IMG/VR virus record: IMGVR_UViG_3300032722_000020
Span: 1-61,263 of that record
Length of the DNA stretch: 61,263 nucleotides
Reading direction: 5' to 3' (one strand)
From: a virus
Lineage: Duplodnaviria; Caudoviricetes
The position numbers and the translations under genes were made by a program. Of this stretch, positions 9,906 through 58,629 are shown one piece after another. A model generated the notes under the pieces. The model ran no database searches. It saw nothing but the letters and a program-made list of their open reading frames with translations, and was not told the DNA's origin. Within the stretch, counting starts at the first letter, position 1. The number at the start of each line of letters is the position of its first letter.

Positions 9906-12797
9906 TCAAATATCTGCCGCCGCGAAACTCGGCACAAATTCCCCCCGCATCAAAGCCGCCAGCCGTTCGCCCGCTTCAATGATATTTGCCAGCGCGCTAC
10001 CTTTGCGCGGTGGGATTGGAGGCAGCACCACCGGACCGGAAACTTCGCGGAAATTTCCATTAATAACTTGCCCGGATTCGTCTTTGCGGATTGCCATGAT
10101 TAGAACAGGCTCGGTTTTCGGTGCTGGCGCGGACTGCTGTTGAATTGTGACCGGCGCGGCGTCATCTTCGATTGATTCAAAGGTTAAATCCTCGCAAACC
10201 GCGCGCAATGCGTCGTAATCAGTGCCGACAATGGCAATTCCCCGCGTGAATATCGCCGCTGATTTGGTTAGGATTTCAAACTTTGTAATGATCCCCCCCG
10301 CAACCGTAACCCGAATGTCAGGCGCAAAAGCTGCATTAACCTTTTCCAAAACTTGCGCGGTGCTGATTTCAAACGGCTTTGCTGGCTCTGGCAATTCCCC
10401 CCGCACAGGAACCACGGCGGAAAGTTTAGCGGATCGGATCGCCGCACGTTGCGCCTCCCGCTTGGCGTGATTGGCTTTCAACTTTTCCGCCAACGTCAAG
10501 ACGGCGGTTTTTAGCGGTTCATCGCCGGCAACATTCCCCACGCTGGCCGGTTCCGGCATAAATGTTTCATAAACTACCCACCCACGCGCAAGTTTGCCGT
10601 TCAAATAGCCTTTTACATGGTGAAACGGCTTGCCGGCGGCAGATTCAAAAGCGTGTTTCTTTCGGTTGAAATTTCCGACAAACCGAAAATTCAAGCCGTC
10701 ATTATTCACGAAAATTTCCCCAACATCAGCAAAGCCGAATTGAAAGCGGGCAAAGCCTACTTGGCGCGGATCATCGGCGGATGTTCCCCCCGCGCTAGGC
10801 TGGCTTTCCGGCTTGGCAGTCTCGACATTGGCAACCGGAGCGGGCGCAACGGCGGCAACGCTAGGCGCGGCAATCGCCGGCTCTCCATGTTTCGCCGTTT
10901 CAATTTCACGCTGGCGAGCGCAAAGTTTATCATTTTCCAAAATCTGCAACTCCAGATTGGCAATGTAACCCGGCAAAACATCATCCAAAAGGGACAATTC
11001 CCGATCTGTCATTGGCCTGTTTTCATCGGCATATTTCACGGCCAATGATTCGAGTATGCGCTTGGCTTGGTTGCGACGGGCAATCAATGGCTTGTAAACC
11101 GGCACGGTGATAATGTCAATTTCACCACAGCTATGGACATTGGAAACCGGTTTGCAATCGCTTACAATGGCCTGCTCTGACGCAGTATCTTTGACAGGGT
11201 ATGCTTTTGCATAGGCCGCGCGAAATTCATCACATTGGGCAGGATGGACAAACGCAACGCCTTTCGGCAAATGTTGCAAGGTGTATTCCTGCAATGTCGG
11301 AATTTTGGCCGGCGCAATCGCAGTTTCATCGCTAATCGTTTCCGGCAAACTTTCCGCCGGTATTTCTGCGGAAACTTCCTGCTCTTCAACCGGAGTTTCG
11401 CTTGCCGGCTCGACATTACAGGCACCATCCAATCGCATTGGCATAGTGACTGAAATCCAAGGCTCATTTATCTTCAAAACAATTGGACCTAAAACCTGCC
11501 CGGAGTTTGGCTTTTCAAATTCTGCCGTGATTTCATCTGTGTCAACTGCTGCAATCGCTTCCCTTAAATAGCGTGGATTTATCCCAATATAAAAATCCGG
11601 CCCCTTGTAATTGATTGCAACGCTGATCCGGCAATCGCCCCGCTCTGGAGAATTGGATGAAACAACACACTCATTTTTGCGAAATTCAAGTTTTATTGCA
11701 TTGGCTTTTTCGCTCGTTTGAATTTCCGCAGTTTTAACTGCGTCAAGTAATTCGACTCGGTTAAAACTGATTTCTTCCCACGCTTCGCCGGGAATCACTT
11801 GCCGGTAATTCGGATAATTTCCTTTAATAAACTTGGAATAAATTTGCACGCTTTGAACGCCGGAATTGAATGAAAAACAACCGTTGCAACTCCCAAACTG
11901 GATTATTACTTCGCCGGAATTTTCAACCGGAAAAGGATTTTTCTTTGTCGCCTTTTTCGCCTTTGGCAGTGATGAAAGAAGCGTGTCAACGGCCTTTGCC
12001 GGCAGAATAAATTCTGAATTGCCAGCGCACCCCAGCAATGACTCTATTTTCGCAACGGTAGAGTTTTGAAAATCGCGGATTTCCCGTGCCGCGCGCCGGG
12101 CCAAAATGTTTTGATCGCAATCGTTTGTTTCAACTAGCTGCTTTGCTGAAATCCAAGCATCATTAGATTTTTCAAACTTCGCCTTTTGAATTGGCAACGA
12201 TTTTTTTAACGCTGCAATCTGTTTTTCCGACATCGGTTTTTTGCCTAATTTCGCCAGCATATCAGCTAACGCCAATCGCCGGCCATCGGTTGCGACAATG
12301 GTTAGCTTGTCGTCTTTGAACGCGAAAAGCACCCCGTTCAAAACATAGCGGCTTTCATCGGTGGATATGGCAAACGATACGCGCTTTAATGCCGTTCGTA
12401 AATCGCTAGTCCTAACGCTCGCTTGGCGCGGACGTAGCATTTCAGGCATCGGCGGAAACTCGTTTGCCGGCAAACCAGCCAGCGAGAAGTTGCTGCCGTT
12501 GCGAATTGCGACGTTGCTTTTCTCATCAGAATCAAACTCAACATCATGGTGGCAGGATTTTAGGATTGCCAGCAAGCGAGACGCCGGCATTGTGACATCG
12601 CCGGGAAGAAAAACCTTAACGCCGGGTAAAGTAATTCGGCTGGTAATATCCAAGTCCGTAGTGGTAACGGCCAAACTGTCTCCGCTCGCCTGAAATAGCG
12701 CATTGGACAGAATAGGAAGCGAATTTCTCCGTGATACGGTTTTGCAAGCCAAAGTTACGGCCTGCGTTATAGTTTCAACTGCGATTTGTGTTTTCAT
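9906..12797 (-). CDS. dnaN: DNA polymerase III beta sliding clamp with internal insertion and ~500-aa C-terminal extension
   Basis: SLPILSN, TTDLD, FAISTDESRYVLNGV, VATDGRRLA, GNYPNYRQVIP, IGINPRYL, VTMPMRL (clamp end near residue 457). Confidence 0.92.
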   Translation of the reverse strand: MKTQIAVETITQAVTLACKTVSRRNSLPILSNALFQASGDSLAVTTTDLDITSRITLPGVKVFLPGDVTMPASRLLAILKSCHHDVEFDSDEKSNVAIRNGSNFSLAGLPANEFPPMPEMLRPRQASVRTSDLRTALKRVSFAISTDESRYVLNGVLFAFKDDKLTIVATDGRRLALADMLAKLGKKPMSEKQIAALKKSLPIQKAKFEKSNDAWISAKQLVETNDCDQNILARRAAREIRDFQNSTVAKIESLLGCAGNSEFILPAKAVDTLLSSLPKAKKATKKNPFPVENSGEVIIQFGSCNGCFSFNSGVQSVQIYSKFIKGNYPNYRQVIPGEAWEEISFNRVELLDAVKTAEIQTSEKANAIKLEFRKNECVVSSNSPERGDCRISVAINYKGPDFYIGINPRYLREAIAAVDTDEITAEFEKPNSGQVLGPIVLKINEPWISVTMPMRLDGACNVEPASETPVEEQEVSAEIPAESLPETISDETAIAPAKIPTLQEYTLQHLPKGVAFVHPAQCDEFRAAYAKAYPVKDTASEQAIVSDCKPVSNVHSCGEIDIITVPVYKPLIARRNQAKRILESLAVKYADENRPMTDRELSLLDDVLPGYIANLELQILENDKLCARQREIETAKHGEPAIAAPSVAAVAPAPVANVETAKPESQPSAGGTSADDPRQVGFARFQFGFADVGEIFVNNDGLNFRFVGNFNRKKHAFESAAGKPFHHVKGYLNGKLARGWVVYETFMPEPASVGNVAGDEPLKTAVLTLAEKLKANHAKREAQRAAIRSAKLSAVVPVRGELPEPAKPFEISTAQVLEKVNAAFAPDIRVTVAGGIITKFEILTKSAAIFTRGIAIVGTDYDALRAVCEDLTFESIEDDAAPVTIQQQSAPAPKTEPVLIMAIRKDESGQVINGNFREVSGPVVLPPIPPRKGSALANIIEAGERLAALMRGEFVPSFAAADI

Positions 12798-32524: not shown

Positions 32525-33475
32525 TCAATTCGCGGGCTGGCGATACATGAGCCGCTTTCCGGCAATCATCGGCATAAACGCAACCATGCGCTCGCCGTCT
32601 GTGCTTTTGCGGGTATTCCAGCGAAATTAAAACTCGCTGGCGTATTTTGAAAGATGCTCCGCAGAAATGCAATGCCACGCGCCGAAAACACCCCTTTTGA
32701 GCAAGGAAAAGAAACTCTCGCAGGTATTCACATGACTAACCGTGCCGTCTGGATTATGCCGCGCGTATTCGTATTTAGAGTGATTCACGCGCTGGTGACG
32801 GTCTTGCCCCTTCAAAGCCATTTTGTAGGACGGATGTTCGTCTGTGTTCACTATCGCCGTCTTGCGGGCGGCTGCCGCCATAAACTCGCCGACGTTTTTT
32901 GCCGTCACGCTTGGAATAACCCGCGTGCGCGCTTCGCCATTGCGCTCGACAATCAGCGCAACAATGGTCTTACGCTCCGGCTTTTCAAAGTTGGGCATGA
33001 ATGTTTCATCGGCTTCGCAAGTGTTGTCCAGCAGCTTTGCCGTTTTCAAATCCGCTCCCATTGCGTGCCGTATGCGATGCGCTAGAAACCAAGCCGTGCG
33101 GTAGGTGGTTTTTAGCATCCGCCGCAATTGCATCGCGCTAATGGATTTTTTAGACGAACACAGAATGAAAATTGCCATCAAGATTTTAGAAAGCGGGACG
33201 TGAGAATCTTCAAACACTGTGCCAACGGTTGCGGTGAACGGCTTGCGGCACGCGCCGCAAAAATAAACACCTTTGCGAAGTGGTGAACGGCTACCCGCTT
33301 TGGATTTCAGCTTGGAAATGGTTTTGGCTTTGCCGTCATTCTGGCAATGTGGGCAAACCGGCTTGCCATCCGGCCAGCGCAGTTGCTCAAAAAGTTTCCG
33401 CGCCCGGTTTTCGTTGGAATACTTCTTTGCCAGTGAAACCAGATTCAGTTCTTCGTCGTTAAGCTTCGCTTTCAT
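32525..33475 (-). pseudogene. IS1595 (ISXO2-like DDE) transposase with premature TAA
   Basis: CPHC/CGAC Zn ribbon, EADET, NTDEH, NTCESFFSLLKRG. In-frame TAA at 32627-32629 is followed by the conserved FRWNTR...GKRLMY tail. Confidence 0.9.
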
Positions 33476-36062: not shown

Positions 36063-36728
36063 ATGAGCAAACTGAAATCAATCTTATCCGAAACGGAACG
36101 CGACGAGCGAAACCAGCTTGAAGCGGTAATCACCAGCGGAATTAAAACCTTTGTCGAGGTTGGAACGGCGCTTCTGACGATTGCAGAAAAGCGGATTTAC
36201 CGCGAGACGCACGGCAGCTTTGAACCGTATTGCCAAGAGAAATGGGGAATGTCGGCGCGTCAGGCTTACCGGCTTTGCGAAGCGGCGACGGTGGTTAAGT
36301 CGCTTCCGAAAAATTGCGACCAATTGGTCACAAACGAAGCCCAAGCCAGAGAACTTGCCCGCGTTCCTGCCGAGAAGCGTGAGGCTGTATTGGTCAAAGC
36401 CGGAACTAAGCCAACAGCGAAAGCGATCCGACAAGCTGCCGCGCCGGAATCGGAAGCGGAAGCAACTCCAATCGAAGAAGAAAAACCGCGCGTTCAGTCT
36501 GGTGTGATTGATGAAAAATTTTGCGAAGCTCTTGGCCTTCCGAAACGGAGTGAGATTCAATCTGAATTACAGTTTTGCATTAACCGGCTTAAACAATTCG
36601 AGCAGCACCTTTTAGACGCCGATTTGTCAGGAGCCGATTTGATTATTATTTCTAAAGAGATTTCCGAACTTTCTAAAAGAATATCCAAAGTCGGGAAGGC
36701 TCGAAAAATTTCCGAATCTTCAAAGTAA
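36063..36728 (+). CDS. Putative DNA-binding phage protein (DUF3102-like)
   Basis: FVEVGTALLTI..YRETHGSFEPYC.EKW..NEAQAREL. Confidence 0.65.
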   Translation: MSKLKSILSETERDERNQLEAVITSGIKTFVEVGTALLTIAEKRIYRETHGSFEPYCQEKWGMSARQAYRLCEAATVVKSLPKNCDQLVTNEAQARELARVPAEKREAVLVKAGTKPTAKAIRQAAAPESEAEATPIEEEKPRVQSGVIDEKFCEALGLPKRSEIQSELQFCINRLKQFEQHLLDADLSGADLIIISKEISELSKRISKVGKARKISESSK

Positions 36729-37582: not shown

Positions 37583-37942
37583 ATGACTGGAACCATGAAA
37601 TGTGAATGCTCGCACTGCGGCACGCTGCTTGGAATCAAGCCGTGTGTCCCGGAAATGGACGGGAAAACCACCAGCGGCATCTGTAATCCATGTTTTGCTA
37701 GGGAAATGTGTGTGGCGCTTGGTCTGGATTTGTTTGACCGCATTCAACGGGCTAATCGCGCGGAATTGACGCTGCTGGTGCTAACTGAGTTGCAGGGCGT
37801 AGAGAGCGAGTCTTTGAGGTTGTCTCTGCGCCAGTTGGCAGCGGAACTTCAGGAACGGCTGCGCGTGGCGTCACTTGCACCGGAAAATTATACTGGCGTG
37901 ACCTTTCGCGTGGCGCTGGCGGAAACGGAGTTGTCCCGATGA
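37583..37942 (+). CDS. Zn-finger hypothetical protein
   Basis: CSHC...SGICNPC. Confidence 0.6.
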   Translation: MTGTMKCECSHCGTLLGIKPCVPEMDGKTTSGICNPCFAREMCVALGLDLFDRIQRANRAELTLLVLTELQGVESESLRLSLRQLAAELQERLRVASLAPENYTGVTFRVALAETELSR

Positions 37943-38102
37943 AATTTGAACCAATAGACCGTTTTTGGATTCAGCCGACGCGCGAGGAAATGGCGGCGGA
38001 TAACGCGCGGTTGAAATCGTGGCTGTTGGCTGCGGTGGTGGTGGCGTCAATCGGTTGGGGGGTAGCTGCATTTGCAATTATTTTAATCGGGAGGGTGGTT
38101 CA

Positions 38103-38360
38103 ATGAACCTTCACGCCAATTCCATTGCCGCCTTTTCCGAGACTGCGAACGAGCGCACCAGCTTGGAAACGCGCATTCTTGAACTAATGTCCGATGGTAA
38201 TCCGCGCACTGACCGTCAGATAGCGCATGAGTTGGGACACCCGGAACCGCTACGGCCAAGAGTCACGACGCTGGTTGAAGAAGTCAAGCTACACGAAGTC
38301 GGTTCAACGAAATGCGAATAGACACACAAGCGCGTCAGATTAACCCGGCGTTTTATTTAA
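38103..38360 (+). pseudogene. Winged-helix protein with internal TAG at 38319-38321
   Basis: TDRQIAHELG..RPRVTTL..EVGSTKCE*THKRV; the frame continues to the TAA inside the first attC box. Confidence 0.55.
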
Positions 38361-38471
38361 CGTCCCTGCTGAGCCAAGCCGGAACGGGAACGCCCGAAAA
38401 ACAAAATGAAGCGACTACCGGCTTTGGCTCCGGCAGGTGGTTAGACCCAGCGAATAACGACAAACAACAAT

Positions 38472-38864
38472 ATGACACCGACACAAACAGTGGCTACGAA
38501 TGAGCGACAATCTGCTATCCTGCCAAACGGTAATAAAATAATAGACTCCGCAATCGCCAGACAGCTTGCCTTGGATTTAGAGGAATGTGGGAAAGCCCTA
38601 AACGCAATGTCGCTTCGGTGTGAAAGGCTTCTGGACGAACGCGCAGAAGCCTATGAGACAATAAACACCCTGCACAATCTTTGCCTGTCTGCTGAAAAGC
38701 GCGCTCTTAAAAAACGTGATGAAGAAATCGCGCAGATAAAAAACGAGCTGCAATACCTCGTCGAAGTCTGCGAAACCAACTTAGAAACAAAAGACTGGCC
38801 GCGATTCAAATATGCCAAACGCATCGCCGCTGGGTCTAACGACAAGCTGACACACGCCGAATGA
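38472..38864 (+). CDS. Cassette hypothetical coiled-coil protein
   Basis: 130 aa; reads through the AAC box into the next attC. Confidence 0.7.
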   Translation: MTPTQTVATNERQSAILPNGNKIIDSAIARQLALDLEECGKALNAMSLRCERLLDERAEAYETINTLHNLCLSAEKRALKKRDEEIAQIKNELQYLVEVCETNLETKDWPRFKYAKRIAAGSNDKLTHAE

Positions 38865-39742
38865 AAAACCATAAAACAACCAGCGACCGAAGCGAACAAC
38901 CGAGCGCGCCCAACGGCGTTGTGTCCAGCGATTTGTTAGACCCCATTTCAATAATCTCGCTAGGTGCGGGTGTCCAAAGCTCGACAATGGCACTGATGGC
39001 AGCGAGGGGCGAAATCGCGCCTATGCCCAAATATGCCATCTTTTCTGATGTCGGCGCAGAACCAAAGAATGTGTATGACTACCTCGACTATCTGGAAAAG
39101 CTGCTGCCGTTTCCTGTGCTGCGCGTGATGCACAAAGACGGGCTGACGAAAGCCATTGAAAAATCTCTAAAGTCTGGGTCTATCTCTGGAAGTCCGCCGT
39201 GGTTCAGTGCTGGCAAGGATGGAAAAGCCGTGCTGCTATCGCGTGCCTGCACGCATGACTTCAAAATACACCCGATACAACAAGCTATCCGGCGACTGAC
39301 GGGTGCTAAGCGTGGAAGCAAGAAAACTCACGCCGTGCTGTGGATAGGCATATCAACTGACGAAGCGCAGCGAATCAAAGACAGCCGCTATCCGCACTAC
39401 ATCCACCGCCATCCTCTAATCGAAAAGGGCATGAGCAGAAACAACTGTCTGGCATGGATGGAACGGAATGGCTACCAGCAACCGCCTAAATCTTCGTGCG
39501 TGTATTGCCCGTTTCACTCTAACCCGCACTGGCGGCAAATCAAAGACACAGACCCGGCTGGATGGGCGGAAGCTGTGCGCGTGGACAATCTCATCCGAGA
39601 CGGTGTGCGGCGGAATGGAAAGCCGCCAATGTATGCTCACCGCTCACTAAAACCACTAAACGAAATAGACCTGACAACTGACCTCGACCGTGGCCAAGAA
39701 CTACTCTGGGGAAACGAGTGTGAGGGGATGTGTGGGGTCTAA
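38861..39742 (+). CDS. PAPS reductase / PP-loop family protein (cassette)
   Basis: SLGAGVQSS, DVGAE, CTHDFKI, IGISTDE, PPKSSCVYCPF, ECEGMCGV. Confidence 0.85.
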   Translation: MKNHKTTSDRSEQPSAPNGVVSSDLLDPISIISLGAGVQSSTMALMAARGEIAPMPKYAIFSDVGAEPKNVYDYLDYLEKLLPFPVLRVMHKDGLTKAIEKSLKSGSISGSPPWFSAGKDGKAVLLSRACTHDFKIHPIQQAIRRLTGAKRGSKKTHAVLWIGISTDEAQRIKDSRYPHYIHRHPLIEKGMSRNNCLAWMERNGYQQPPKSSCVYCPFHSNPHWRQIKDTDPAGWAEAVRVDNLIRDGVRRNGKPPMYAHRSLKPLNEIDLTTDLDRGQELLWGNECEGMCGV

Positions 39743-39774
39743 CGTGGGCGCTGAGCCGCCCCGGAAAGAAAACC

Positions 39775-40362
39775 ATGAATGAACCAAAGACCGAAGCGAT
39801 AAACGACACGCGCCAACCGGGGTTGGCTCCAGCAACTTGTTATGCTTCCCTGCCGCCAATCCTGGACGCTTGTTGTGGAGGCCGGCAATTCTGGTTCGAC
39901 AAGGAAAACCCGAACGTGCTTTTTGCTGACTGCCGCGTGATGCCTGACAAGGTGGTCGGGAGCGGCAAGGATGCCCGCACGCGCCGCTGCCTGCCGGATC
40001 GTGTCCACGACTTCCGCGCAATGGAATATCCCGACGAGACTTTTCAAATGGTCGTGTTCGACCCGCCGCATCTATTCCTCGGCGAGAATAGCTTCATGGC
40101 TCAAAGCTACGGGCGGCTGGACCGCGAAACGTGGCGCGATGATTTGAGCCGTGGCTTCGCCGAGTGCTTCCGAGTCTTGAAGCCCGGCGGCGTGCTTATC
40201 TTCAAGTGGAATGAATGCGACGTGCCACTTGCGGAAATTCTAAAACTCACGCCGCACAAACCGCTGTTCGGTCATCCGAGCGGCAAAGCACAGAAAACGC
40301 ACTGGTGCGCGTTCTGGAAGCATAACGCTCCGGCTCACCGGCCGGCGCGAGAACAAGAATAA
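39775..40362 (+). CDS. SAM-dependent (DNA adenine) methyltransferase (cassette)
   Basis: ILDACCGGRQFW, VVFDPPHL, ECFRVLKPGGVLIFKW. Confidence 0.88.
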   Translation: MNEPKTEAINDTRQPGLAPATCYASLPPILDACCGGRQFWFDKENPNVLFADCRVMPDKVVGSGKDARTRRCLPDRVHDFRAMEYPDETFQMVVFDPPHLFLGENSFMAQSYGRLDRETWRDDLSRGFAECFRVLKPGGVLIFKWNECDVPLAEILKLTPHKPLFGHPSGKAQKTHWCAFWKHNAPAHRPAREQE

Positions 40363-40366
40363 CGCT

Positions 40367-40645
40367 ATGACTACTCAATCAACGTCCGAACAGCCAGCGC
40401 CCGCGCCGGTTCGCGTGCAGCCGGTGGTTAGAGCGCGATACCGTGTCTCTGACTGGATAAACACCAACACCATGCAGCCGGTCTTCGGCATCCAACACAA
40501 CAAGGAGCGGGGCAAGTGGGTGAACTGTGCGGTGGACGGCACGGCGCTGCTCTACACTAAACGCGAAACCGCCGAGAGACACTGCCGCTGGCTGAATGAC
40601 CCGAAAGGCACTGCGCCGGAATGGTCACAAGACTCAGCGCTCTAA
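40367..40645 (+). CDS. Cassette hypothetical protein
   Basis: Starts inside attC; its stop codon is the TAA of the terminal TCTAAC. Confidence 0.7.
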   Translation: MTTQSTSEQPAPAPVRVQPVVRARYRVSDWINTNTMQPVFGIQHNKERGKWVNCAVDGTALLYTKRETAERHCRWLNDPKGTAPEWSQDSAL

Positions 40646-40679
40646 CAGTTAATTCAATCAACAGAGTTGCTATTATCAC
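40640..40679 (-). other. Putative attI
   Basis: Minus strand ...TTGAATTAACTG|TTAGAGC directly 5' of intI, with no attC hairpin following. Confidence 0.65.
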
Positions 40680-41663
40680 ATGGGGCTTATCCAAAAACTG
40701 AACGATGCGATGATTGAGCAAAGCCTTGCGCGCTCAACTATGCAAGGCTACCGCTTTTGGAATCGCAAGTTCTATGGCTATGTGAAGAAACCGGCGAGCC
40801 AATGGCAAGGTGGCGATGTAAAGGCATTTTTACTGTGGTTGTATGCTGAAAATTATTCACCGGTTTCGCGCAAGCAGGCTTTGAATGCGCTGGCTTTTAC
40901 ATTCAAGCACGTTCTCATGGCAGACATGGGTAATTTGGAACTGCCGCCCATGCCGAAGGTGACTCAGACCAACCGGATTTTGCCATCGCCGGATGATTTG
41001 CAGCGCATTTTTGCCCTAATGAACGGTATGCCTAAAACAATGGCGCAACTGATGGCCGGATCTGGCCTGCGCGTGGCAGAGTGTTGCAAGCTGCGGGTGC
41101 AAGACGTGGACATTGAAGCCCGCACGATTCGCGTTTGGTTTGGAAAAAATGACAAGTGCCGGCGAACGATCATTCCTGATTCTCTGGTGCCGAAATTGCA
41201 GCGGCACCTGGCATTGCGAAAGGCACTGCATGACCGCGATCTAGCCGATGGACGCGGCTTGGTGGTTTTGCCGGGACGGCTGGCTAACAAATACCAGCAG
41301 GCTAACCAGGAATTTCGGCAGCAATGGTTTTTTCCGTCCACGAAGTTTCGCGGGCAGTATCGTTGGCACGCGGTTCCTGAATGTTTAGGAAAACCAATGC
41401 GCCGGGCTGTAAAGGCGGCGGGAATATTGAAGCACCTTACCCCGCATTGCCTGCGCCATTTCTTCATCACTTACAGTCAGCGCGTCGGAAATGACCTGAA
41501 AACAGTGATGGAATGGGCCGGTCATCAGAACCCAGAAACAACGATGATTTACACACACCCGGACGCGGCGAACGGGGTTAGTCCGTTGGATTATATGGTT
41601 GCCAGAACAATCATTACAACCCACCCGATGACACCAAGGCGGATTGAATTTCACCACGCATAA
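40680..41663 (+). CDS. intI: Integron integrase-type tyrosine recombinase
   Basis: Catalytic R-K-H-R-H-Y intact (GLRV, GKND, HCLRH, AGH, MIYTH). IntI-specific insertion HDRDLADGRGLVVLPGRLANKY..QWFFPS; N-terminal QALNAL. Confidence 0.92.
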   Translation: MGLIQKLNDAMIEQSLARSTMQGYRFWNRKFYGYVKKPASQWQGGDVKAFLLWLYAENYSPVSRKQALNALAFTFKHVLMADMGNLELPPMPKVTQTNRILPSPDDLQRIFALMNGMPKTMAQLMAGSGLRVAECCKLRVQDVDIEARTIRVWFGKNDKCRRTIIPDSLVPKLQRHLALRKALHDRDLADGRGLVVLPGRLANKYQQANQEFRQQWFFPSTKFRGQYRWHAVPECLGKPMRRAVKAAGILKHLTPHCLRHFFITYSQRVGNDLKTVMEWAGHQNPETTMIYTHPDAANGVSPLDYMVARTIITTHPMTPRRIEFHHA

Positions 41664-41697
41664 ATGTCCACAATCCAGACAGATTTATTTGCTACGC

Positions 41698-42066
41698 ATG
41701 AATCTTCCGATTCCATCACCAACCCTAGCTCGACTTAACCCGCACTTATTTAGCAGTGGTCAGTCCGTTGCTAGTTGCAGCGAACCAGTTACCCGCGAAA
41801 GTGACTTGCATGAATCCATCTTTGCCGAATGTCGGAAACGCGGTTGGATAGTGTTGCACGGTTCTATGTCAGAACGGACGCATCGCACGGCTGGCGAACC
41901 GGATTTTGTGATTCTGGCTAATGCGGGACGGTTGATGTTAGTGGAATGTAAGTCGCGCGGCGGTAAGTTATCGCCAACGCAAAGCGCGATGAAGGCGCAC
42001 GCGGAGAAGTTAGGCCATACGGTTCACGTTGTCAGGAGCATGGATGAATTTTTTAAGATTTTATGA
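41698..42066 (+). CDS. VRR-NUC domain nuclease
   Basis: GEPDF..VECK..GKLSPTQ..VVRS. Confidence 0.88.
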   Translation: MNLPIPSPTLARLNPHLFSSGQSVASCSEPVTRESDLHESIFAECRKRGWIVLHGSMSERTHRTAGEPDFVILANAGRLMLVECKSRGGKLSPTQSAMKAHAEKLGHTVHVVRSMDEFFKIL

Positions 42067-45330: not shown

Positions 45331-45507
45331 ATGACTGAACCAATCAAACTCCGGCGTCCGGCGAAATATCTGCACACCGGCAAACATGACTATGATGACG
45401 GCTTCCGAGTCGGAAGCAACTGCGCCAAACGCCGCACTATCCGTGCCTTCAAGCGCGGGCAACGTCGTGAAAGTCTCAAATACATGACTCAAGACGAAGT
45501 GGCCTAA
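45331..45507 (+). CDS. Small basic protein ending in an attC box
   Basis: 58 aa; stop codon within AGTGGCCTAAA. Confidence 0.55.
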   Translation: MTEPIKLRRPAKYLHTGKHDYDDGFRVGSNCAKRRTIRAFKRGQRRESLKYMTQDEVA

Positions 45508-45540
45508 AGCTCCGCATTAGCGACCGCCGACCAAAACGCT

Positions 45541-45774
45541 ATGATTGCAACTGAGACGCCCAACGGCGGTTCACTCGATGCGGTTGTTAGGCATACACCG
45601 TGGACACAAGATGAAGATGATATGCTGCGCTACTGGTATGGGTGCGCGAATGGCGCAATGACCCCATACCGGCACATGGCTGAATATCTGAACAAACACT
45701 TTCACGGCGGCAAACCAATCCGAAAAGTCGGTGCAATAGCTCGCCGCGACGGAAAAATAAACTACGGCAAATGA
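45541..45774 (+). CDS. Myb/SANT-like HTH small protein (cassette)
   Basis: PWTQDEDDMLR..MAEYLN..R; starts inside attC. Confidence 0.65.
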   Translation: MIATETPNGGSLDAVVRHTPWTQDEDDMLRYWYGCANGAMTPYRHMAEYLNKHFHGGKPIRKVGAIARRDGKINYGK

Positions 45775-46049
45775 AATACATAATCGAAACTGGAAATGAC
45801 GGAGGCGCGGCCTCGGTAGTGGGATGGACTCACGACTTCGGAAGTGCCTGCAATGAAGTGGCGCGGATAGTCGGGATTGACTGCTATGTGAAAATCCAGC
45901 CAATCAATCGCGGCAAAAACGGCGCGATATGGAACTTCGTCCATGACGGAAAAACAAAGTGGCTGCGCGTGCTTAAAATGCCCGCTGCCGAAACCTACGG
46001 CGCGATGGATGTATGTTCGCCCGTTCGAGACGCATCGCTGTATGCCTAA
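45771..46049 (+). CDS. Cassette hypothetical protein
   Basis: Second gene of the same cassette; stop codon within GCCTAAC. Confidence 0.65.
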   Translation: MKYIIETGNDGGAASVVGWTHDFGSACNEVARIVGIDCYVKIQPINRGKNGAIWNFVHDGKTKWLRVLKMPAAETYGAMDVCSPVRDASLYA

Positions 46050-46176
46050 CGTAGAAAGCTGAGCCACCCGCGACCTATGACATCCGCCAACCAGAAACCT
46101 TCTCGGTCAACTGACAGCGCCAACGCGGGTTGGCTCCGGCGACTTTTTAGGCCACTGGTATAACTGAAACAAAAAT

Positions 46177-46539
46177 ATGGGATACATATCTGAAACAATC
46201 GGCAATCTGGAACACGAGCAACGGACGGCAAACAAGCTGGCCGACGCGATAGCCCTGCTGCGCGAACTCGAATGGTCGGGATGCGTGAACACCGAAATAC
46301 TCGCGGTGAACACCTGCCCGTGCTGCTACAACTGGAAACCAACAAGCGGTGACGATGATTTCTGGAAAGGCCGCGAACTGCGGAAAGGACACACGCCGGA
46401 CTGCAAGCTTGCCGATTTGCTGAAAGCATCTAACGCGGACATCAGGCGCGGCGACGTGAACCGCGACAGCGGAACAGCAAGCGCCAACGGCGGTTGGCTC
46501 CGGCGACTGGTTAGGCATAGCGATATAAAATCTAAATAA
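46177..46539 (+). CDS. Cassette hypothetical protein (Cys/His motif)
   Basis: LEWSG..CPCC..GHTPDC; reads through the next attC. Confidence 0.65.
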   Translation: MGYISETIGNLEHEQRTANKLADAIALLRELEWSGCVNTEILAVNTCPCCYNWKPTSGDDDFWKGRELRKGHTPDCKLADLLKASNADIRRGDVNRDSGTASANGGWLRRLVRHSDIKSK

Positions 46540-46540
46540 A

Positions 46541-46777
46541 ATGAAAACCGAAACCAAACGAACCGACAAGGAACGCGAGCAACAAGCTGCGACTCCCGAC
46601 AAACCGCGCTCGGCATATCTTGCGCGTAAATTCTTTCCGCACCTCGGCGAATATCACGGACAAGCCTTGGTCGAACAACTAATCCGCGCCGCCGCTATGC
46701 CTAACGAAAAAGCTGACCTACCGCCGACCGGGGCGCGTCAGCCGCGTAGCGGAACTGAAGGCGGTAACGGAGGTTAG
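46541..46777 (+). CDS. Cassette hypothetical protein
   Basis: 78 aa; ends inside attC. Confidence 0.55.
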   Translation: MKTETKRTDKEREQQAATPDKPRSAYLARKFFPHLGEYHGQALVEQLIRAAAMPNEKADLPPTGARQPRSGTEGGNGG

Positions 46778-46820
46778 GTCCGGCGCTTTTTTAGCTGAAC
46801 GTCAAAAAAAACAGAAAATT

Positions 46821-47219
46821 ATGGGAACAAACTACTATCTGAAAACGAATATCTGCCAGCACTGCAATCGCGCTGGAGAAGAAAAACACATCGGCAAATC
46901 TTCCGGCGGCTGGCACTTCGCGCTGCACGTCGAGCCGGAAAATGGCATCGCAACTCTGGATGACTGGAAAGTGCTGTTCGCGCAACCAGACTCCAAAATC
47001 TTCGATGAATACGGCAAAGAAATCGCTGTGGATGAAATGCTGAAAATCATCACCGAACGGTCATGGTGGCAGCGAAAGAACGACTGGAAGAAAGAACAAT
47101 ACGAACAAAACCACGCCCAACCCGGCATCAATGGACTCATCCGCAACAAAATAGAACCCGACCACTGTGTCTCGCACGGCGAAGGAACGTGGGACTGCAT
47201 CGTGGGCGAGTTCAGATAA
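46821..47219 (+). CDS. Phage-type hypothetical protein (cassette)
   Basis: MGTNYY..CQHC..HIGKSSGGW..IFDEYG. Confidence 0.8.
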   Translation: MGTNYYLKTNICQHCNRAGEEKHIGKSSGGWHFALHVEPENGIATLDDWKVLFAQPDSKIFDEYGKEIAVDEMLKIITERSWWQRKNDWKKEQYEQNHAQPGINGLIRNKIEPDHCVSHGEGTWDCIVGEFR

Positions 47220-47254
47220 AGCTCCTGCTGACCTACCGCGCACGTTAGATGCGA

Positions 47255-53269: not shown

Positions 53270-53614
53270 ATGGAAACAACACTAGAAAAACCAAGTGCCG
53301 CCGCAAATGCCAGCGACAAGGCGGATTCGCCTGCGATGCCTTGTTCGGAGAAAAAACCAGTGATAATCCGTGGCCGTGCAATATGCCACGGGGCTGACCT
53401 TCGGTGGTCTAGCCTGCCAATCATAAACCTTCCGCCCAACACAATCAAAGTTCGTCGGCGCATCAGAAATGATCGCTTCGCATCGGTGTTCGTAAAAACA
53501 AAAACCGAAGTCCAACACTGGAGGCTCTGTCCAGTAGGAGATAAATTCAATGGTGTAACCGAACTCTATCTCGACCTACTGCAAGGGGTGAACGCCTTTT
53601 CTCCGAACAGTTGA
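53270..53614 (+). CDS. Cassette hypothetical protein
   Basis: Start lies in an attC remnant. Confidence 0.5.
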   Translation: METTLEKPSAAANASDKADSPAMPCSEKKPVIIRGRAICHGADLRWSSLPIINLPPNTIKVRRRIRNDRFASVFVKTKTEVQHWRLCPVGDKFNGVTELYLDLLQGVNAFSPNS

Positions 53615-53641
53615 ATATACCAGGCCACTTTGTATAACCTA

Positions 53642-55822
53642 GTGACTCCCGAAACTAAATCCATCGCCGAGCAAAATGCGATTGCCAAAGTCACCTCCGC
53701 CGCGTGGCGCGGCGTCGGCAAATCGTTTCGCGGTGAGATTTATGACTACGCCCGCACGTTCACGTTGGGCAGCGGTTATCTGGGCGACTGGCAGCTAACC
53801 AACCTGTGCCGCCTCTGCCGCGCCAAAGGTAACATCCGAACGTGCCGCCATTTTGAGATAGATACCGCGCGCCATTTAATCGGCCCGTTCAAAGCCATCC
53901 TCGATCCCAATGTGCGGATTGTGATGTTGCTTAAAGCTGCACAAACCGCCGGCTCGCTCGTTTGGGATTTGACAGTCCATTATCTGCTCGTCCATTCGCC
54001 TTATATGCGGGTTAAGGCGCTGATGGATTGTGAAGAAAAGGCGCGAATTTATTGCACGCAGCGATTGATGGAAACTTTGCGAAAGAATCCCGACATCTCT
54101 CCCCTGCTGCCGACCGGAGCGGACAGGTTCGGCGTGACCGATACGGAGATGCGTTTGCTTAACGGTAAAACTTTATTCGTCGGCGGACTTAACGAAACAA
54201 ATGCGTCATCGCTACCGGCGGACGTGATGATTCTGGACGAGGGTTGGTTGCACCAATCGGATGGGCTAATGGGAAAAGCTGTCAACCGCGTCAAACAAAG
54301 CCAGAAACGAGGAAAACTTATTATCGTGGGACAGGCTGGAAAAGTGAAGGAGGATCAGGATTTAATTTGGGAGGGGCTTCATGTTCGTGTTCCTTTGACG
54401 TTTTCATGTCCTGCCTGCGGTGGCCGACAGGAATTTAACATCACCAAGCAACGGCCAAATGATTTTGCGCCGCTTCCAATCAAGGGGATCGGCGAATGGA
54501 CGATTCCTGCCGATCCTCCAAAGCCAGAAACTTTTTGGGGGATGAAGGTGCCGGAACGTTTTTCAGAACTCGACACGCCGGAAAAAATCAAGTCTGCCGC
54601 CGCCAAGACAACGATTGAATGCTACCATTGCGGATCAGAACTTCCCGACACCCGCAAAATCCGCGAAGCCATCAATGCTACATTTGATCAGGAATATCGC
54701 CAGCAGTTGCCGAATGGGATTTTTTACACGCCGAAAAATTTTAGCGTTGGATTCTGGCAGCCCGACCCGGCCTCGATGTTCGTTCCGTGGCGAGAAACCA
54801 TGCAGGCATACATCGTGGCGGTCAAAGCACATAAAGAATCTGGGAACATCCAAAAACTGATTGATTTTTACTTGTCGAACTGGGCAACACCTTGGGATGG
54901 AAAATCGCTGTCGGTTTCCAACCGGACGATAACCGCCGGAACTTACGACCCGTTGAAGTATCTGGAAATTTTTGGCAAGGATGAATCCGGCGCGAGCCTG
55001 TTTCATTCCGTGAACATGGCAGTGGACTGCCAAGAGGACGCCGACCACAAGGCCGCAACCGAGAAATCCATCACTGGCTGGTTTTGGTATATCGTGCGTG
55101 CGTATGACCGATTTGGAAACAGTCGTCAACTGGCGCGCGGTTATTGCAAATCATGGGCGGCATGGCGCTCGGTTCAGGCATTTTGGGGAGTTCCGAATGA
55201 CCGGGTAATGATTGACGTAGTGCAATGGAGCGAACAGGTGATGAATAAGGCGGTGGAGTTCCGGCAGATGGTGAAGCGTTCGCGGCCACATCCGATTTTC
55301 AAGACGATGGAAGATTCGGTGACTTGGAAACTTCTGGCCGCAAGTCCCGGCAAGCAGAATTTCAAGGGACATCGGGACGGCCAAATCAGGCCGTGGTCGC
55401 CAGAGGCGGCAGTGTATGGTAGTATGATTGACGAGTCCGGCAAAGTGCGGCGCATCCCGCTGGCGCGCATTTTATTCAACAAGACGCCCATCATGTTGCA
55501 GATAGATTCGCTTTACAGCGGAGCGCCAGGGATGCCGAAGTTTGAATTTTTATCGCGTGACCAGCTTAAAATTCCGGCGGCTGATGGAAAAACGCTTGTG
55601 CCGGACACGCTGACGCTTTCAATGGAAGTGGACGGGCGCAACGGCAGGCAGACGATGTTGGCTTACGAAAACCAGATGAGCGCGCAGATTTACAACAAAG
55701 AGACGAACAAGTATGACGAGTTGCGACCGGACGATCACTGGTTTTGGTGCGAGCAGGCGTTACTTGTGCGTGCGGGGATGGACGGTTTGTTGGGGCAATC
55801 AGCGGTGTTTTCGGCGGAATGA
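53642..55822 (+). CDS. Terminase large subunit (GpA family)
   Basis: KAAQTAGS (deviant Walker A), MILDE (Walker B), CPAC/CYHC, AVDCQ nuclease motif, DHWFWCE. Confidence 0.9.
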   Translation: MTPETKSIAEQNAIAKVTSAAWRGVGKSFRGEIYDYARTFTLGSGYLGDWQLTNLCRLCRAKGNIRTCRHFEIDTARHLIGPFKAILDPNVRIVMLLKAAQTAGSLVWDLTVHYLLVHSPYMRVKALMDCEEKARIYCTQRLMETLRKNPDISPLLPTGADRFGVTDTEMRLLNGKTLFVGGLNETNASSLPADVMILDEGWLHQSDGLMGKAVNRVKQSQKRGKLIIVGQAGKVKEDQDLIWEGLHVRVPLTFSCPACGGRQEFNITKQRPNDFAPLPIKGIGEWTIPADPPKPETFWGMKVPERFSELDTPEKIKSAAAKTTIECYHCGSELPDTRKIREAINATFDQEYRQQLPNGIFYTPKNFSVGFWQPDPASMFVPWRETMQAYIVAVKAHKESGNIQKLIDFYLSNWATPWDGKSLSVSNRTITAGTYDPLKYLEIFGKDESGASLFHSVNMAVDCQEDADHKAATEKSITGWFWYIVRAYDRFGNSRQLARGYCKSWAAWRSVQAFWGVPNDRVMIDVVQWSEQVMNKAVEFRQMVKRSRPHPIFKTMEDSVTWKLLAASPGKQNFKGHRDGQIRPWSPEAAVYGSMIDESGKVRRIPLARILFNKTPIMLQIDSLYSGAPGMPKFEFLSRDQLKIPAADGKTLVPDTLTLSMEVDGRNGRQTMLAYENQMSAQIYNKETNKYDELRPDDHWFWCEQALLVRAGMDGLLGQSAVFSAE

Positions 55823-56694: not shown

Positions 56695-58629
56695 ATGAAA
56701 GTTTTATCCCCATCCACATGGTTTCAGAAAAGCGTTGCGGTTGCTCCGCCACCGCAGTCTGAGTCCCCGTTTCGCCAAGACCTGTCGCCGGACGAAATCG
56801 CGCGGGCAAACGCGCAGATTCGCACGTTTGGAAAGATGAAGGAGCAGGTTGCCGGTCTGATGGAATCCGCCAGCCGTTTGCAGCGCAGTTATGACGCTGG
56901 GGTGACGACGGCTTTCAATGCGGATTTCAAAGGGACTTACGGAACGGCTAACACGGAAATTTTCATGGACTTTTACAAGGTGTGGGCGCGAGCGCGCACC
57001 TTGGCGAAGGACACGCCGCAGGGCAAGGCGATTTTACGGACGCACCGCAACAATATCGTCGGGCATGACCCGTTCAAGCTCACAATGAAGGTTGGTTCAA
57101 CGATTGAGAAGCCACATCCCAAATCCGGCCAAATGGTAAAAGTTTTTGAGGCCGAAAATGATGTCAACCAGATAATCGAATCAGAGTGGAAACAGCAGGG
57201 TTTGCCGGAAAACTTTACCGTGCGCGGGACGGTTTCCTCATTGGAGGCGTTCAACCAGATGGTGAACGAGGCTAAGACCATCGGCAGCGTTTTAATCCGT
57301 CTGTGGGATGATTTTCCGAACAACGAAAGCCGGTTTGCGATTGACCTTTTGGAGTCCGACCGCTTGCAGCCGAATTACATGGCCACTTCGCAGACGGGCG
57401 ACAAGTTTGGCGCTGGCAACCCGATTCGCGGCAGCATCGAGTATCATCCGAAATGGAATTATCCGCTGGCCTACTGGATTTTGACGCGGCATCCTGGCGA
57501 GGGGTATGTCCAAAACAACTATGTCGGCGACGGCGACAAGAAATGGGTGCGCGAGCAGGTTCCGGCGAAGGACATCATCCATTTCAACAACCTGCGGGAT
57601 CGCGCGGAGCAGGAATTTGGCTTCACGGAAATGGACGCCTGCATCCAAGCAATTTGGCGGCTGTTCCAATACCAGAAGGCTTTAACCTATGCCGCTATTT
57701 CAAGCTGCATGAAAGTTTTCTGGATCAAGAAAAACTATCCTACCGGGATGAGCTTCACGCCGGACGAGTTCGGGGCGATGGTGGAAAAGTTTGCGGACGG
57801 AACAGGTTTGCCAAATGCGCTGGCTGGCGGCGACAGCGTGACGCGGCAACAAGGCATCCAGCAACGACGCAGCACCGAGACTCCGGGCGCAACTCTGGAA
57901 CTGGATTACGGTTTGGAACTGATGCAGACCGACCCGCGCTTTCCCATCGAGGCCGCGCATGAATTTCGGATGGATAACGACAAGGAGATTGCGGCGGCGG
58001 CGGCGGTGTCGTATTCCGATTTGACCGGGGATTTTCAGTCGCTCGGCTACATCGCAGCGCAGATGTCGCAACGTCCGTCCCGCGATGAGGCGATGGTGTT
58101 TCAGGAACACATGATAATGGTGGTGGTATCGCGCATCTTCAAACGCTGGCTTCGCGCTGCGTGCATGAATGGCGTGCTGGACGGGCTGGCGTCGAGACAG
58201 AAAGAGATTTTGCGGGCAGCACATTTCCACGGCAAGCGGTTCCCGTTCACGGACGAACTACGCGAAGTGCAGGCGCTCGTTTTGAAGCTGGACGCCAAGC
58301 TGATTTCTCCGCAACGCGCGCAGGACATGATGGCCGACGGCGACGATATTGAAAACGTGATTGCCGAATGGTCGCAATGGAATGAGCGGTGCGAGGCTTA
58401 CGGCATCACGCTGATGGACGCGCCGACAAGCGTTACGGAAAAAGAAACGCTGGCGGAAACACCGGATGCCCCAACCACGGATGATGGTGGAGAACCTCCG
58501 GCTGCCACACAGAAGCCGTCCAAGAAAAAAGGCAGCGTGACAGCCAAGCAGCAGACGGCGCGCAGCAGCCATCAGCGCAACGGCCACGGCGCGGCACTGG
58601 TGCGGCAACTGCTGGCGGAAAGAATTTAA
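56695..58629 (+). CDS. Portal protein, lambda family
   Basis: RSYDAG, ARARTL, NNIVG, LESDRL, PLAYWI, VPAKDIIH, VSYSDLTGDF. Confidence 0.93.
   Translation: MKVLSPSTWFQKSVAVAPPPQSESPFRQDLSPDEIARANAQIRTFGKMKEQVAGLMESASRLQRSYDAGVTTAFNADFKGTYGTANTEIFMDFYKVWARARTLAKDTPQGKAILRTHRNNIVGHDPFKLTMKVGSTIEKPHPKSGQMVKVFEAENDVNQIIESEWKQQGLPENFTVRGTVSSLEAFNQMVNEAKTIGSVLIRLWDDFPNNESRFAIDLLESDRLQPNYMATSQTGDKFGAGNPIRGSIEYHPKWNYPLAYWILTRHPGEGYVQNNYVGDGDKKWVREQVPAKDIIHFNNLRDRAEQEFGFTEMDACIQAIWRLFQYQKALTYAAISSCMKVFWIKKNYPTGMSFTPDEFGAMVEKFADGTGLPNALAGGDSVTRQQGIQQRRSTETPGATLELDYGLELMQTDPRFPIEAAHEFRMDNDKEIAAAAAVSYSDLTGDFQSLGYIAAQMSQRPSRDEAMVFQEHMIMVVVSRIFKRWLRAACMNGVLDGLASRQKEILRAAHFHGKRFPFTDELREVQALVLKLDAKLISPQRAQDMMADGDDIENVIAEWSQWNERCEAYGITLMDAPTSVTEKETLAETPDAPTTDDGGEPPAATQKPSKKKGSVTAKQQTARSSHQRNGHGAALVRQLLAERI

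Follow-up and report, generated by a model that had tools for sequence, protein, structure and literature searches.

A likely integron with a phage-associated integrase and bottom-strand cassette genes in a lake-water phage

Integrons are regarded as bacterial gene-capture devices. Here, we describe an integron-like segment at positions 38355 to 41663 of IMG/VR record IMGVR_UViG_3300032722_000020 (Duplodnaviria; Caudoviricetes), a virus record whose full length of 61,263 bases is referred to below as the window. The record comes from a lake-water phage and is classed as linear, with a completeness estimate of 83%. For 10,705 phage genomes, the text of Qi et al. (2023, PMC9892861) gives three complete integrons, one In0 (an integrase without cassettes), and 17 attC clusters. 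The carriers named there are Vibrio anguillarum prophages, a P1 isolate with class 1 integrons, and the Shewanella prophage M16-3, and DNA methyltransferases are among the phage-associated cassettes. The Vibrio case is a subset of the host chromosomal array, with an IntIA 75% identical to V. cholerae IntIA, and the same text presents both this and the P1 case as fragments of host chromosomal or class 1 integrons. The few published phage cases resemble host integrons that were carried along. Given these reports, the presence of an integron in a phage is already known. An earlier note on this DNA had said that integrons are regarded as rare or absent in phages, which is partly outdated.

On sequence evidence, we think it likely that the segment is a genuine integron resident in the phage genome and that its integrase, IntI, belongs to a phage-associated lineage. 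The canonical layout appears when the segment is read on the minus strand: the integrase gene (intI), an attI-like site at the 5′ end of intI, and four cassettes that each end in an attC (Table 1). What carries this reading is the anatomy, cassette-precise differences among relatives, covariation in the attC stems, the IntI clade, a flipped coding strand in the cassettes, and purifying selection on intI, all of which were observed. The earlier note had proposed just such an intI-attI-cassette arrangement. Its proposal gained support from a cassette-precise difference, the abutment of unlike sequences to attI, the head/tail chains of the cassettes, and the phage-type cargo, and every element that it listed was found in place.

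Among NCBIfam families, the intI product best matches the integron integrase family TIGR02249 (223.7 bits, E 3.6e-66), more than 100 bits ahead of the runners-up XerA (119 bits) and XerC (87 bits). Residues 11–303 align with the V. cholerae integron integrase structure 2a3v (E 2.4e-45), whereas the alignment with archaeal XerA splits into residues 11–184 and 239–295 and leaves 185–238 unmatched. Since residues 185–238 align with 2a3v and have no XerA counterpart, they are the IntI-specific insertion. R131, K156/K159, H256, R259, H282, and Y291 were invariant in an alignment of 26 clade members. The earlier description of a tyrosine recombinase with all catalytic residues and the IntI-specific insertion was thus borne out.

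The exchange point of integrons is the AAC/GTT triplet, and the outer part of the R box moves with the neighbouring cassette. Complementarity between the head and the tail of every cassette is therefore the expected product of integron recombination. The four cassettes, labelled D, C, B, and A from the outermost inwards, have perfect complementary runs of 13, 11, 11, and 10 nucleotides (nt), respectively, in line with the paired heads and tails noticed earlier. Cassette D has the head GTTAGACCCAG... and the tail ...CTGGGTCTAAC, which are complementary over 13 nt; cassette C matches at 11/11; and in cassette B the head GTTATGCTTCC, the 11-mer that follows the GTT of attC3, is exactly complementary (11/11) to the tail GGAAGCATAAC at 40316–40326. 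In the whole window, there are five perfect 11-mer GTT.../...AAC pairs spaced 200–1300 nt apart (three here, one in a second array, and one at 53343/53598), compared with 0–1 (mean 0.2) in 20 mononucleotide shuffles.

We scored 16 consecutive attC pairs from the window and its relatives by comparing the 11-nt head of each site with the tail of the next. The mean was 10.06 of 11, with perfect complementarity in 10/16 and a score of at least 9 in 15/16. The sole exception, on L005, spans 1.1 kb and may conceal an undetected site. As controls, the same heads were compared with the tail of their own site (mean 6.25, n = 32) and with tails from other loci (mean 6.08), where a score of at least 10 was seen in 5 of 940 comparisons. 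A scan that required pairing of R'' and R' within one site recovered only attC2 and two unrelated palindromes. The requirement was mistaken, since in an array each site draws its two boxes from different cassettes.

The attC sites share the layout RYYYAAC, GCTGAG-type arm, loop, CTC-C-AGC-type arm, and GTTRRRY, with a bulged C and a bulged T on the 3′ arm. attC1 to attC3 align together and with sites on the metagenome contigs L138 and L140; attC2 and attC3 are 72% identical over 93 nt. Four attC hairpins had been claimed for the segment and all four sites were located, but only attC1 and attC2 fold better than shuffles. As DNA, attC1 folds into the expected hairpin, its 3′ arm bulged (z −3.5), and attC2 forms an 8-bp R-box stem (z −2.6). 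A covariance model (R1) built from six attC sites of this family gave 41 matches at E ≤ 1 in 372,719 nt, comprising the window and 23 related loci. Forty of the matches lie on the intI strand, and those in relatives are nearly all within 2 kb upstream of intI. When the 41 matches were aligned, 90.8% of cells paired, compared with 67.9% in shuffles (none of 500 as high) and 28–45% when partners were slid. Changes on both sides of a stem numbered 141 cells, against 47.5 in shuffles.

The 34 nt from the AA/C cut (the slash marks the point of exchange; 40645/40646) to the intI ATG are conserved, and an equivalent block directly follows ...AAC in 20 of 21 relatives. The exception is L013, where the block was absent from the 90 nt examined. 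To the left of the block, the sequence differs from contig to contig, and unlike sequences abut ...AAC in L137, L138, and L140. A conserved block that starts at ...AAC with a variable left side points to a crossover at AA/C on the plus strand (G/TT on the minus strand). This conservation also favours the earlier suggestion of a putative attI site 5′ of the integrase gene. An exact scan of viral contigs for the attI motif returned five loci, two of them before a small unrelated open reading frame (ORF) and three resembling chance matches; none of the five encodes a relative of any window ORF of at least 60 amino acids (aa), the integrase included. At the former two (L162 3772–3810 and L163 6099–6135), the motif comes after ...CTAAC and is followed by an unrelated ORF (71 and 94 aa, respectively) with no intI. 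They may be attI remnants following loss or replacement of the integrase gene.

The earlier note had proposed looking among related phages for cassette-precise gain or loss at AA/C. We found it on contig L140, which lacks exactly the 320-nt cassette 40326–40645, cut at AA/C. There, the methyltransferase cassette (86% identity over 546 nt) is joined straight to attI and the start of intI, a stretch of 103 nt that is 100% identical to the window; the genes upstream of the methyltransferase differ. One contig from run X5 has the same 320-nt skip (40321 to 40642). This skip and the 11/11 match of cassette B together place attC4 and make the last cassette 320 nt long. A tail for attC4 at 40357–40363, with a head/tail match of 8/10, had been considered and was replaced on the same grounds. 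A related phage fragment, L143, carries homologues of the upstream gene (65% identity) and of RecT (60%) with no integron between them, only two small unrelated ORFs. The integron is therefore an accessory module in a variable slot of the backbone.

Single-protein locus searches of viral and genome contigs gave no relatives, and alignment queries were used instead. These found IntI relatives with 41–63% identity in 17 viral contigs (L002–L018). A maximum-likelihood tree was calculated from 44 rows, with one short row (L095) dropped and a midpoint root only. It contained a clade of 25 rows (support 100/99) with 18 viral contigs, the window, 2 metagenome contigs, and 5 Chthoniobacterales genome contigs. 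The other 19 rows (also 100/99) were Chthoniobacterales chromosomal IntIs, other bacterial IntIs (mostly proteobacterial), and the viral sequence L019. The phylogeny proposed in the earlier note as a check thus put the window IntI in a mainly viral clade. More than 12 other viral contigs share the integron architecture. The backbones of the relatives are unrelated to that of the window; tblastn matched only IntI and one VRR-NUC. The relatives are themselves phages: PHROG matches to minor head protein, head protease, terminase, portal, tail, structural, or tape-measure families lie within 10 kb of intI in L004, L005, L010, L013, L015, and L017. A search of 10 related records, none of them complete, gave no match to the portal family phrog_21, which is uninformative about their phage status. 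On L004 (6569–13913), intI is flanked by genes for a minor head protein and a head maturation protease, which indicates that the integron is not limited to early regions in every phage of the clade.

IntI cleaves the 5′-AAC-3′ of the folded attC bottom strand, and the extrahelical bases of the bottom strand lie on the arm opposite the AAC triplet, according to the text of Nivina et al. (2016, PMC5027507). In the window sites, the 5′ arm of the plus strand carries AA/C and the 3′ arm carries the bulges, which by this rule makes the plus strand the recombinogenic bottom strand. It doubles as the sense strand of intI and the cargo genes, and its relation to intI is that of canonical integrons. 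The arrangement associated with promoter Pc, in which cassettes are coded away from intI, is not the one seen here, as the cargo genes point towards intI. Across phage-type cassettes, the longest ORF was on the intI strand in 20 of 29 (one cassette of more than 1.7 kb was skipped). Host chromosomal arrays set in the same orientation had the longest ORF on the intI strand in only 1 of 42 cassettes, the opposite strand being used in 15/16 and 26/26 in the two arrays (Fisher p = 8e-10 for 20/29 against 1/42). Homology fixes the coding strand for two of the four cargo genes, those for the methyltransferase and the PAPS-reductase-like protein, and each of these starts at an ATG in the loop of its own attC.

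Table 1. Features of the window, with positions counted from its first nucleotide. AA/C marks the point of exchange.
Feature	Positions	Strand	Details
attC1, outermost (ATTTAAC ... GTTAGAC)	38355–38446	+	Boundary AA/C at 38360/38361; R1 79.1 bits (training sequence)
Cassette D, 479 nt	38361–38839	+	ORF 38472–38864, 130 aa, no family
attC2 (GTCTAAC ... GTTAGAC)	38834–38941	+	R1 110.9 bits (training sequence); contains ATG of next ORF (38861)
Cassette C, 903 nt	38840–39742	+	ORF 38861–39742, 293 aa, PAPS-reductase-like, phrog_424 E 1.2e-42
attC3 (GTCTAAC ... GTTATGC)	39737–39845	+	R1 120.8 bits (training sequence); contains methyltransferase ATG (39775)
Cassette B, 583 nt	39743–40325	+	ORF 39775–40362, 195 aa, DNA methyltransferase, phrog_954 E 2.2e-65
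attC4 (GCATAAC ... GTTAGAG)	40320–40433	+	Head/tail match of cassette B and 320-nt skip in L140 and X5; contains ATG (40367)
Cassette A, 320 nt	40326–40645	+	ORF 40367–40645, 92 aa, no family; head/tail complementary over 10 nt
attI-like site (R box CTCTAA/C and 33-nt conserved block to intI ATG)	40640–40679	+	Conserved in relatives
intI, integron-type tyrosine recombinase, 327 aa	40680–41663	+	TIGR02249, 2a3v alignment, catalytic residues
Second attC cluster, no adjacent integrase	45498–47250	+	R1 matches 45498–45596, 46040–46156, 46424–46521, 46695–46800
Terminase large subunit	53630–55822		phrog_15
Portal	56695–58629		phrog_21
963-aa ORF, upstream of integron	9906–12797	−	phrog_947 (residues 1–185) and phrog_3007 (residues 261–393)

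The cargo is of phage type, as the earlier note had said, judging from the PHROG matches of the PAPS-reductase-like protein and the methyltransferase (Table 1). The stop codon TAA of the PAPS-reductase-like ORF is part of the boundary TAA/C, and the 92-aa ORF of cassette A likewise stops at a TAA within its boundary. The 130-aa ORF of cassette D had no Pfam or PHROG match; for this protein and the 92-aa one, the nearest atlas clusters are viral hypothetical proteins only, which we treat as a lead. The cargo as a whole (methyltransferase, PAPS-reductase-like protein, and two small proteins) probably serves infection or counter-defence. Its composition suggests methyltransferase protection of phage DNA together with other early functions.

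Putting these features together, we propose that IntI is active in the phage and would act as follows. IntI would fold the attC bottom strand, here the plus strand, and cut at AA/C on the 5′ arm of the hairpin. Exchange between an attC and attI would insert a cassette beside intI, at the promoter-distal end of the array, and exchange between two attCs would excise a cassette as a circle. The plus-strand attCs could be exposed as the non-template strand during transcription, or in single-strand replication or recombination of the phage. Since the non-template strand of the transcribed array is also the recombinogenic strand, transcription or single-strand replication could trigger shuffling. 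The array is presumably transcribed from a phage early promoter. Because the cassette genes point towards attI and intI, it would be read by transcription of the phage block and not from a promoter in intI or attI: transcription would enter from the co-directional upstream block, read the cassettes, and reach intI last.

Several results weigh against a genuine resident integron. The 223.7 bits of the intI product fall short of the curated TIGR02249 cut-off of 265, for which reason we class the protein as a divergent IntI clade and not as a member of the curated equivalog. (A score under the cut-off also suggests that current annotation pipelines overlook this clade.) The ORFs of cassettes D and B overrun their own boundaries by 25 and 37 nt, so that excision would alter their C-termini. 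attC3 has a z of −0.57 and a minimum-energy fold that differs from the expected hairpin; attC4 has a z of −0.49, although a long bulged hairpin forms, and it was missed by R1. The R1 hits and the pair counts are biased towards structure, as the training sites are of the same family and the 41-row alignment was fitted to the model. The L-box bulge of described attC sites is usually a G, and in the window attCs it is a C. Regarding the coding strand, the longer ORF runs opposite to intI in 9 of the 29 phage-type cassettes, which are mostly short ones with near ties. At 21/36 phage-type sites, an ORF of at least 50 aa begins with an ATG within the attC; the same applied to 8/17 and 0/27 sites of the two host arrays. 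We had considered this trait as a discriminator of phage-type cassettes, and it fails because one host array has it at 8/17; the host counts mean that a start within attC is established only for the two genes whose strand is fixed by homology. Scans for promoters and terminators were at chance level, with 11 and 23 matches where 10.1 and 21.9, respectively, were expected, so that the term "early operon" is based on gene order and direction. Finally, no recombination event was observed in the assembled contigs, which are unable to reveal circles or rare variants. The earlier statement that the phage uses its integron to acquire and shuffle genes therefore draws on comparative signatures and on purifying selection on intI.

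Some of these points would also suit an integron by descent that is inactive now, with the four genes fixed in the operon and intI serving another role or none. The two overrunning ORFs, the folds of attC3 and attC4 that are no better than those of shuffles, and the degenerate boxes of the second array described below all agree with such a fossil, as does the lack of an excision product in assembled contigs, which cannot show circles in any case. However, intI is intact and has a ratio of nonsynonymous to synonymous substitution rates (dN/dS) of 0.046 relative to a 91%-identical relative on L137, which indicates that it is kept by purifying selection. The perfect 10–13 nt heads and tails in all four cassettes would decay without selection or recent recombination. 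In addition, a near relative that is identical over 103 nt of attI and intI differs from the window by exactly one cassette. On balance, we consider an inactive remnant unlikely, and we continue to favour a genuine integron of a phage-associated lineage.

Another possibility is that a fragment of a host chromosomal integron was captured passively, by imprecise excision or illegitimate recombination, as in the Vibrio anguillarum prophages. Captures of this kind are described in the text of Qi et al. (2023, PMC9892861), and suitable donors are common: 62 of 201 Chthoniobacterales genomes had an IntI match at E ≤ 1e-40 (G169, one of them, is flagged as unpublished). Host attCs are recognised by R1, with at least 139 matches in genome G137, 17 in G076, and 5 in G040, and they show the same strand relation to intI. 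The G137 count is a lower bound, as at least 139 were found among 150 candidates scored. This genome has two arrays, C7:1124095–1433531 (about 310 kb) and C5:145495–160864 (15 kb), each with an IntI gene, and thus exemplifies chromosomal integrons of very large size in Verrucomicrobiota. Chthoniobacterales are the likely hosts. Nevertheless, only four of these genomes had an IntI at 50–58% identity to that of the window; the rest were at 33–42% and fall outside its mostly viral, well-supported clade. When one genome per species was searched, a Chthoniobacter assembly gave the best match (53%, on a contig of 2.4 kb), followed by one of 35%. The cassettes of host arrays are coded on the opposite strand, the cargo of the window is of phage type, and one attI type recurs across phages with unrelated backbones. 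A passively captured host fragment is thus very improbable as an account of this locus.

We also asked whether IntI could be the integration enzyme of the phage, with the hairpins as attP-like sites for entry at host attC or attI. The window ORFs that were scanned contained no second integrase, three of the 10 related records are listed as provirus, and intI is near a contig end in several relatives. In a Chthoniobacter assembly, there is also a lone attC of the same family (L141 1501–1601, minus strand, equal to G001:C4:205868–205968), whose R boxes are self-complementary over 10 bp (GTGGCCTAAC ... GTTAGGCCAC). It could be a single site without a nearby integrase or possibly a target of attC-directed insertion. 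However, intI is interior and not terminal in all three provirus records, and the proximity of contig ends to intI is consistent with assemblies that break at repeated attCs. Three relatives encode large proteins that match the transposase family phrog_310 a few kb upstream of the array (L002 2288–5065, E 5.9e-15; L010 2306–4402, E 2.7e-08; L018 1651–3555, E 5.2e-06), which suggests another route of integration. Some carriers of the clade may be transposable phages, and Mu-like is our guess for these. A lysogeny integrase would also leave unexplained the chains of cassettes with matching heads and tails and the difference of a single cassette. We find this explanation still less credible than passive capture, and a genuine integron remains our preferred reading.

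An artefact, either a chimeric join with host DNA or chance or regulatory stem-loops, deserves almost no credence: this is a metagenome assembly and attC-like repeats can mis-join contigs, but contigs of other studies run across both flanks and the internal junctions, the architecture recurs in other viral contigs, perfect 11-mers exceed their shuffle mean, and the stems covary. The bridging contigs come from lake-water and freshwater runs. Those of X3 are identical to the window over 38020–39753 and 40344–40885; the junction of backbone and attC1 is spanned by contigs of X4 (37938–38443) and X5 (37941–38371), and that of intI and VRR-NUC by contigs of X4 (41523–41939) and X7 (41428–41808). 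They contradict the chimeric join that the earlier note had held up as the outcome that would undo its reading. Logan contigs tend to end at attCs because these are repeats, and stretches without contig cover were counted neither for nor against.

Further downstream, 3.8 kb past intI, is a second cluster of at least four attC sites of the same family, with small plus-strand ORFs between them (Table 1). The head GTTAGGCATAC at 45586 matches the tail GTATGCCTAAC at 46040–46050 over 11/11, and by direct reading, 13 nt from 46510 (GTTAGGCATAGCG) are complementary to CGCTATGCCTAAC from 46695. Some boxes are degenerate, with AAA for AAC at 45506 and TTT for GTT in two R' boxes, so the cluster may be decaying. 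The attC core at 46451–46516 had a summed contig depth of 1721, 1452, and 422 in lake runs X4, X5, and X7, respectively, while its flanks had about 2–60, and many different sequences adjoin it. These depths make this attC type very abundant in those lake communities and agree with an enormous pool of cassettes that carry it, probably housed in large part in the chromosomal arrays of hosts. Joints within the second cluster, such as 46068 to 46451 with 8 other letters between, had been considered as phage cassette deletions and are best read as other copies of this attC family from the community. A further perfect 11-nt GTT/AAC pair (53343–53353 and 53598–53608) is located just upstream of the terminase gene, with only a weak partial R1 match nearby at 53274–53320 (7.9 bits). 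The pair may have arisen by chance, with 0.2 such pairs expected per window, or may mark another cassette-like unit.

The integron segment is flanked by phage genes on both sides, with the clamp/RusA-like 963-aa ORF upstream and VRR-NUC, RecT, terminase, and portal genes downstream. In a protein family scan, the VRR-NUC nuclease and RecT came immediately 3′ of intI. The plus-strand ORFs are tightly packed in a long run from 36063 to beyond 53 kb, and the segment sits within it as four small-to-medium ORFs followed by the tyrosine recombinase. Relatives of the protein encoded at 36063–36728 were searched for and none were found. The 963-aa ORF joins an N-terminus resembling a DNA polymerase processivity factor (clamp) to a RusA-like resolvase region. 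An IS1595-family transposase gene (DDE_Tnp_IS1595, E 2.9e-22, and a zinc ribbon) is present at 32627–33475 on the minus strand, just ahead of the divergent region that leads into the plus-strand gene block.

A broader proposal, on which we are evenly balanced, is that these elements form an integron lineage adapted to phages. Such a lineage would have its own IntI clade, its own attI, and mirror-image cassettes coded on the bottom strand and often starting in the attC loop. It would be expressed by read-through from phage promoters, with intI last and new cassettes entering at the promoter-distal end. It would share its attC family with verrucomicrobial hosts but draw on a separate, phage-oriented pool of cassettes (methyltransferases and other infection or counter-defence genes), traded between unrelated backbones, and its shuffling could be set off by transcription or single-strand replication. 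If this is true, phages run a site-specific exchange system of their own for accessory, probably counter-defence, genes. It would give a mechanistic account of part of the mosaicism of phage early regions and a defined route to phage accessory genes, namely to look between these attCs. It would also be a natural experiment on what sets cassette orientation in integrons.

Like the phage integrons of Qi et al. (2023, PMC9892861), as presented in the text of that paper, the locus is a complete intI-attI-cassette unit in a phage genome and carries a methyltransferase cassette. It differs from the Vibrio and P1 cases described there in an IntI from a mainly viral clade, an attI type common to unrelated backbones, and flipped cassettes. 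A term search of the paper, with supplementary tables outside its scope, returned neither "reverse" nor "Verrucomicrobi". Our literature search, which did not extend to subscription journals, likewise returned no report of a phage-specific IntI clade, of its own attI across unrelated phages, or of bottom-strand cassette coding. Three things thus appear to be new, as we did not find them in print: a mainly phage-borne IntI clade, an attI type of its own that unrelated phages share, and systematic coding of cassettes on the bottom strand.

The sedentary chromosomal integrons of Chthoniobacterales (G137, G076, and G040) have the same array upstream of the 5′ end of intI, the same identity of bottom strand and intI sense strand, and the same ...AAC boundaries. 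Their attCs are recognised by R1 at 15–39 bits in the regions examined and at no more than 39.8 bits genome-wide. Their IntIs belong to a separate clade at 33–42% identity. The host arrays are long, as 14.5 kb and 20 kb of sequence contained 17 and 27 sites, respectively, and G137 gave at least 139 matches, whereas phage arrays have 1–4 cassettes. Host cassette ORFs lie opposite the intI strand in 41 of 42 cases; phage cassettes mostly use the intI strand. With VchIntIA (2a3v) and IntI1, the window shares a full-length alignment that includes the insertion (VchIntIA), the catalytic residues, and an AAC cleavage triplet on the bottom strand. It differs from these systems and their attI1 and attC sites in cargo that points to intI, no sign of expression from an intI or attI promoter, a C bulge, and a score below the cut-off. 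Inverted-integrase integrons (in Treponema and others) have intI turned relative to attI and the array. As these are generally described, they resemble the window in that intI and the cassette genes point one way. What sets the window apart from that description is that it keeps the canonical relation of intI, attI, and attC and flips the coding strand of the cassettes instead.

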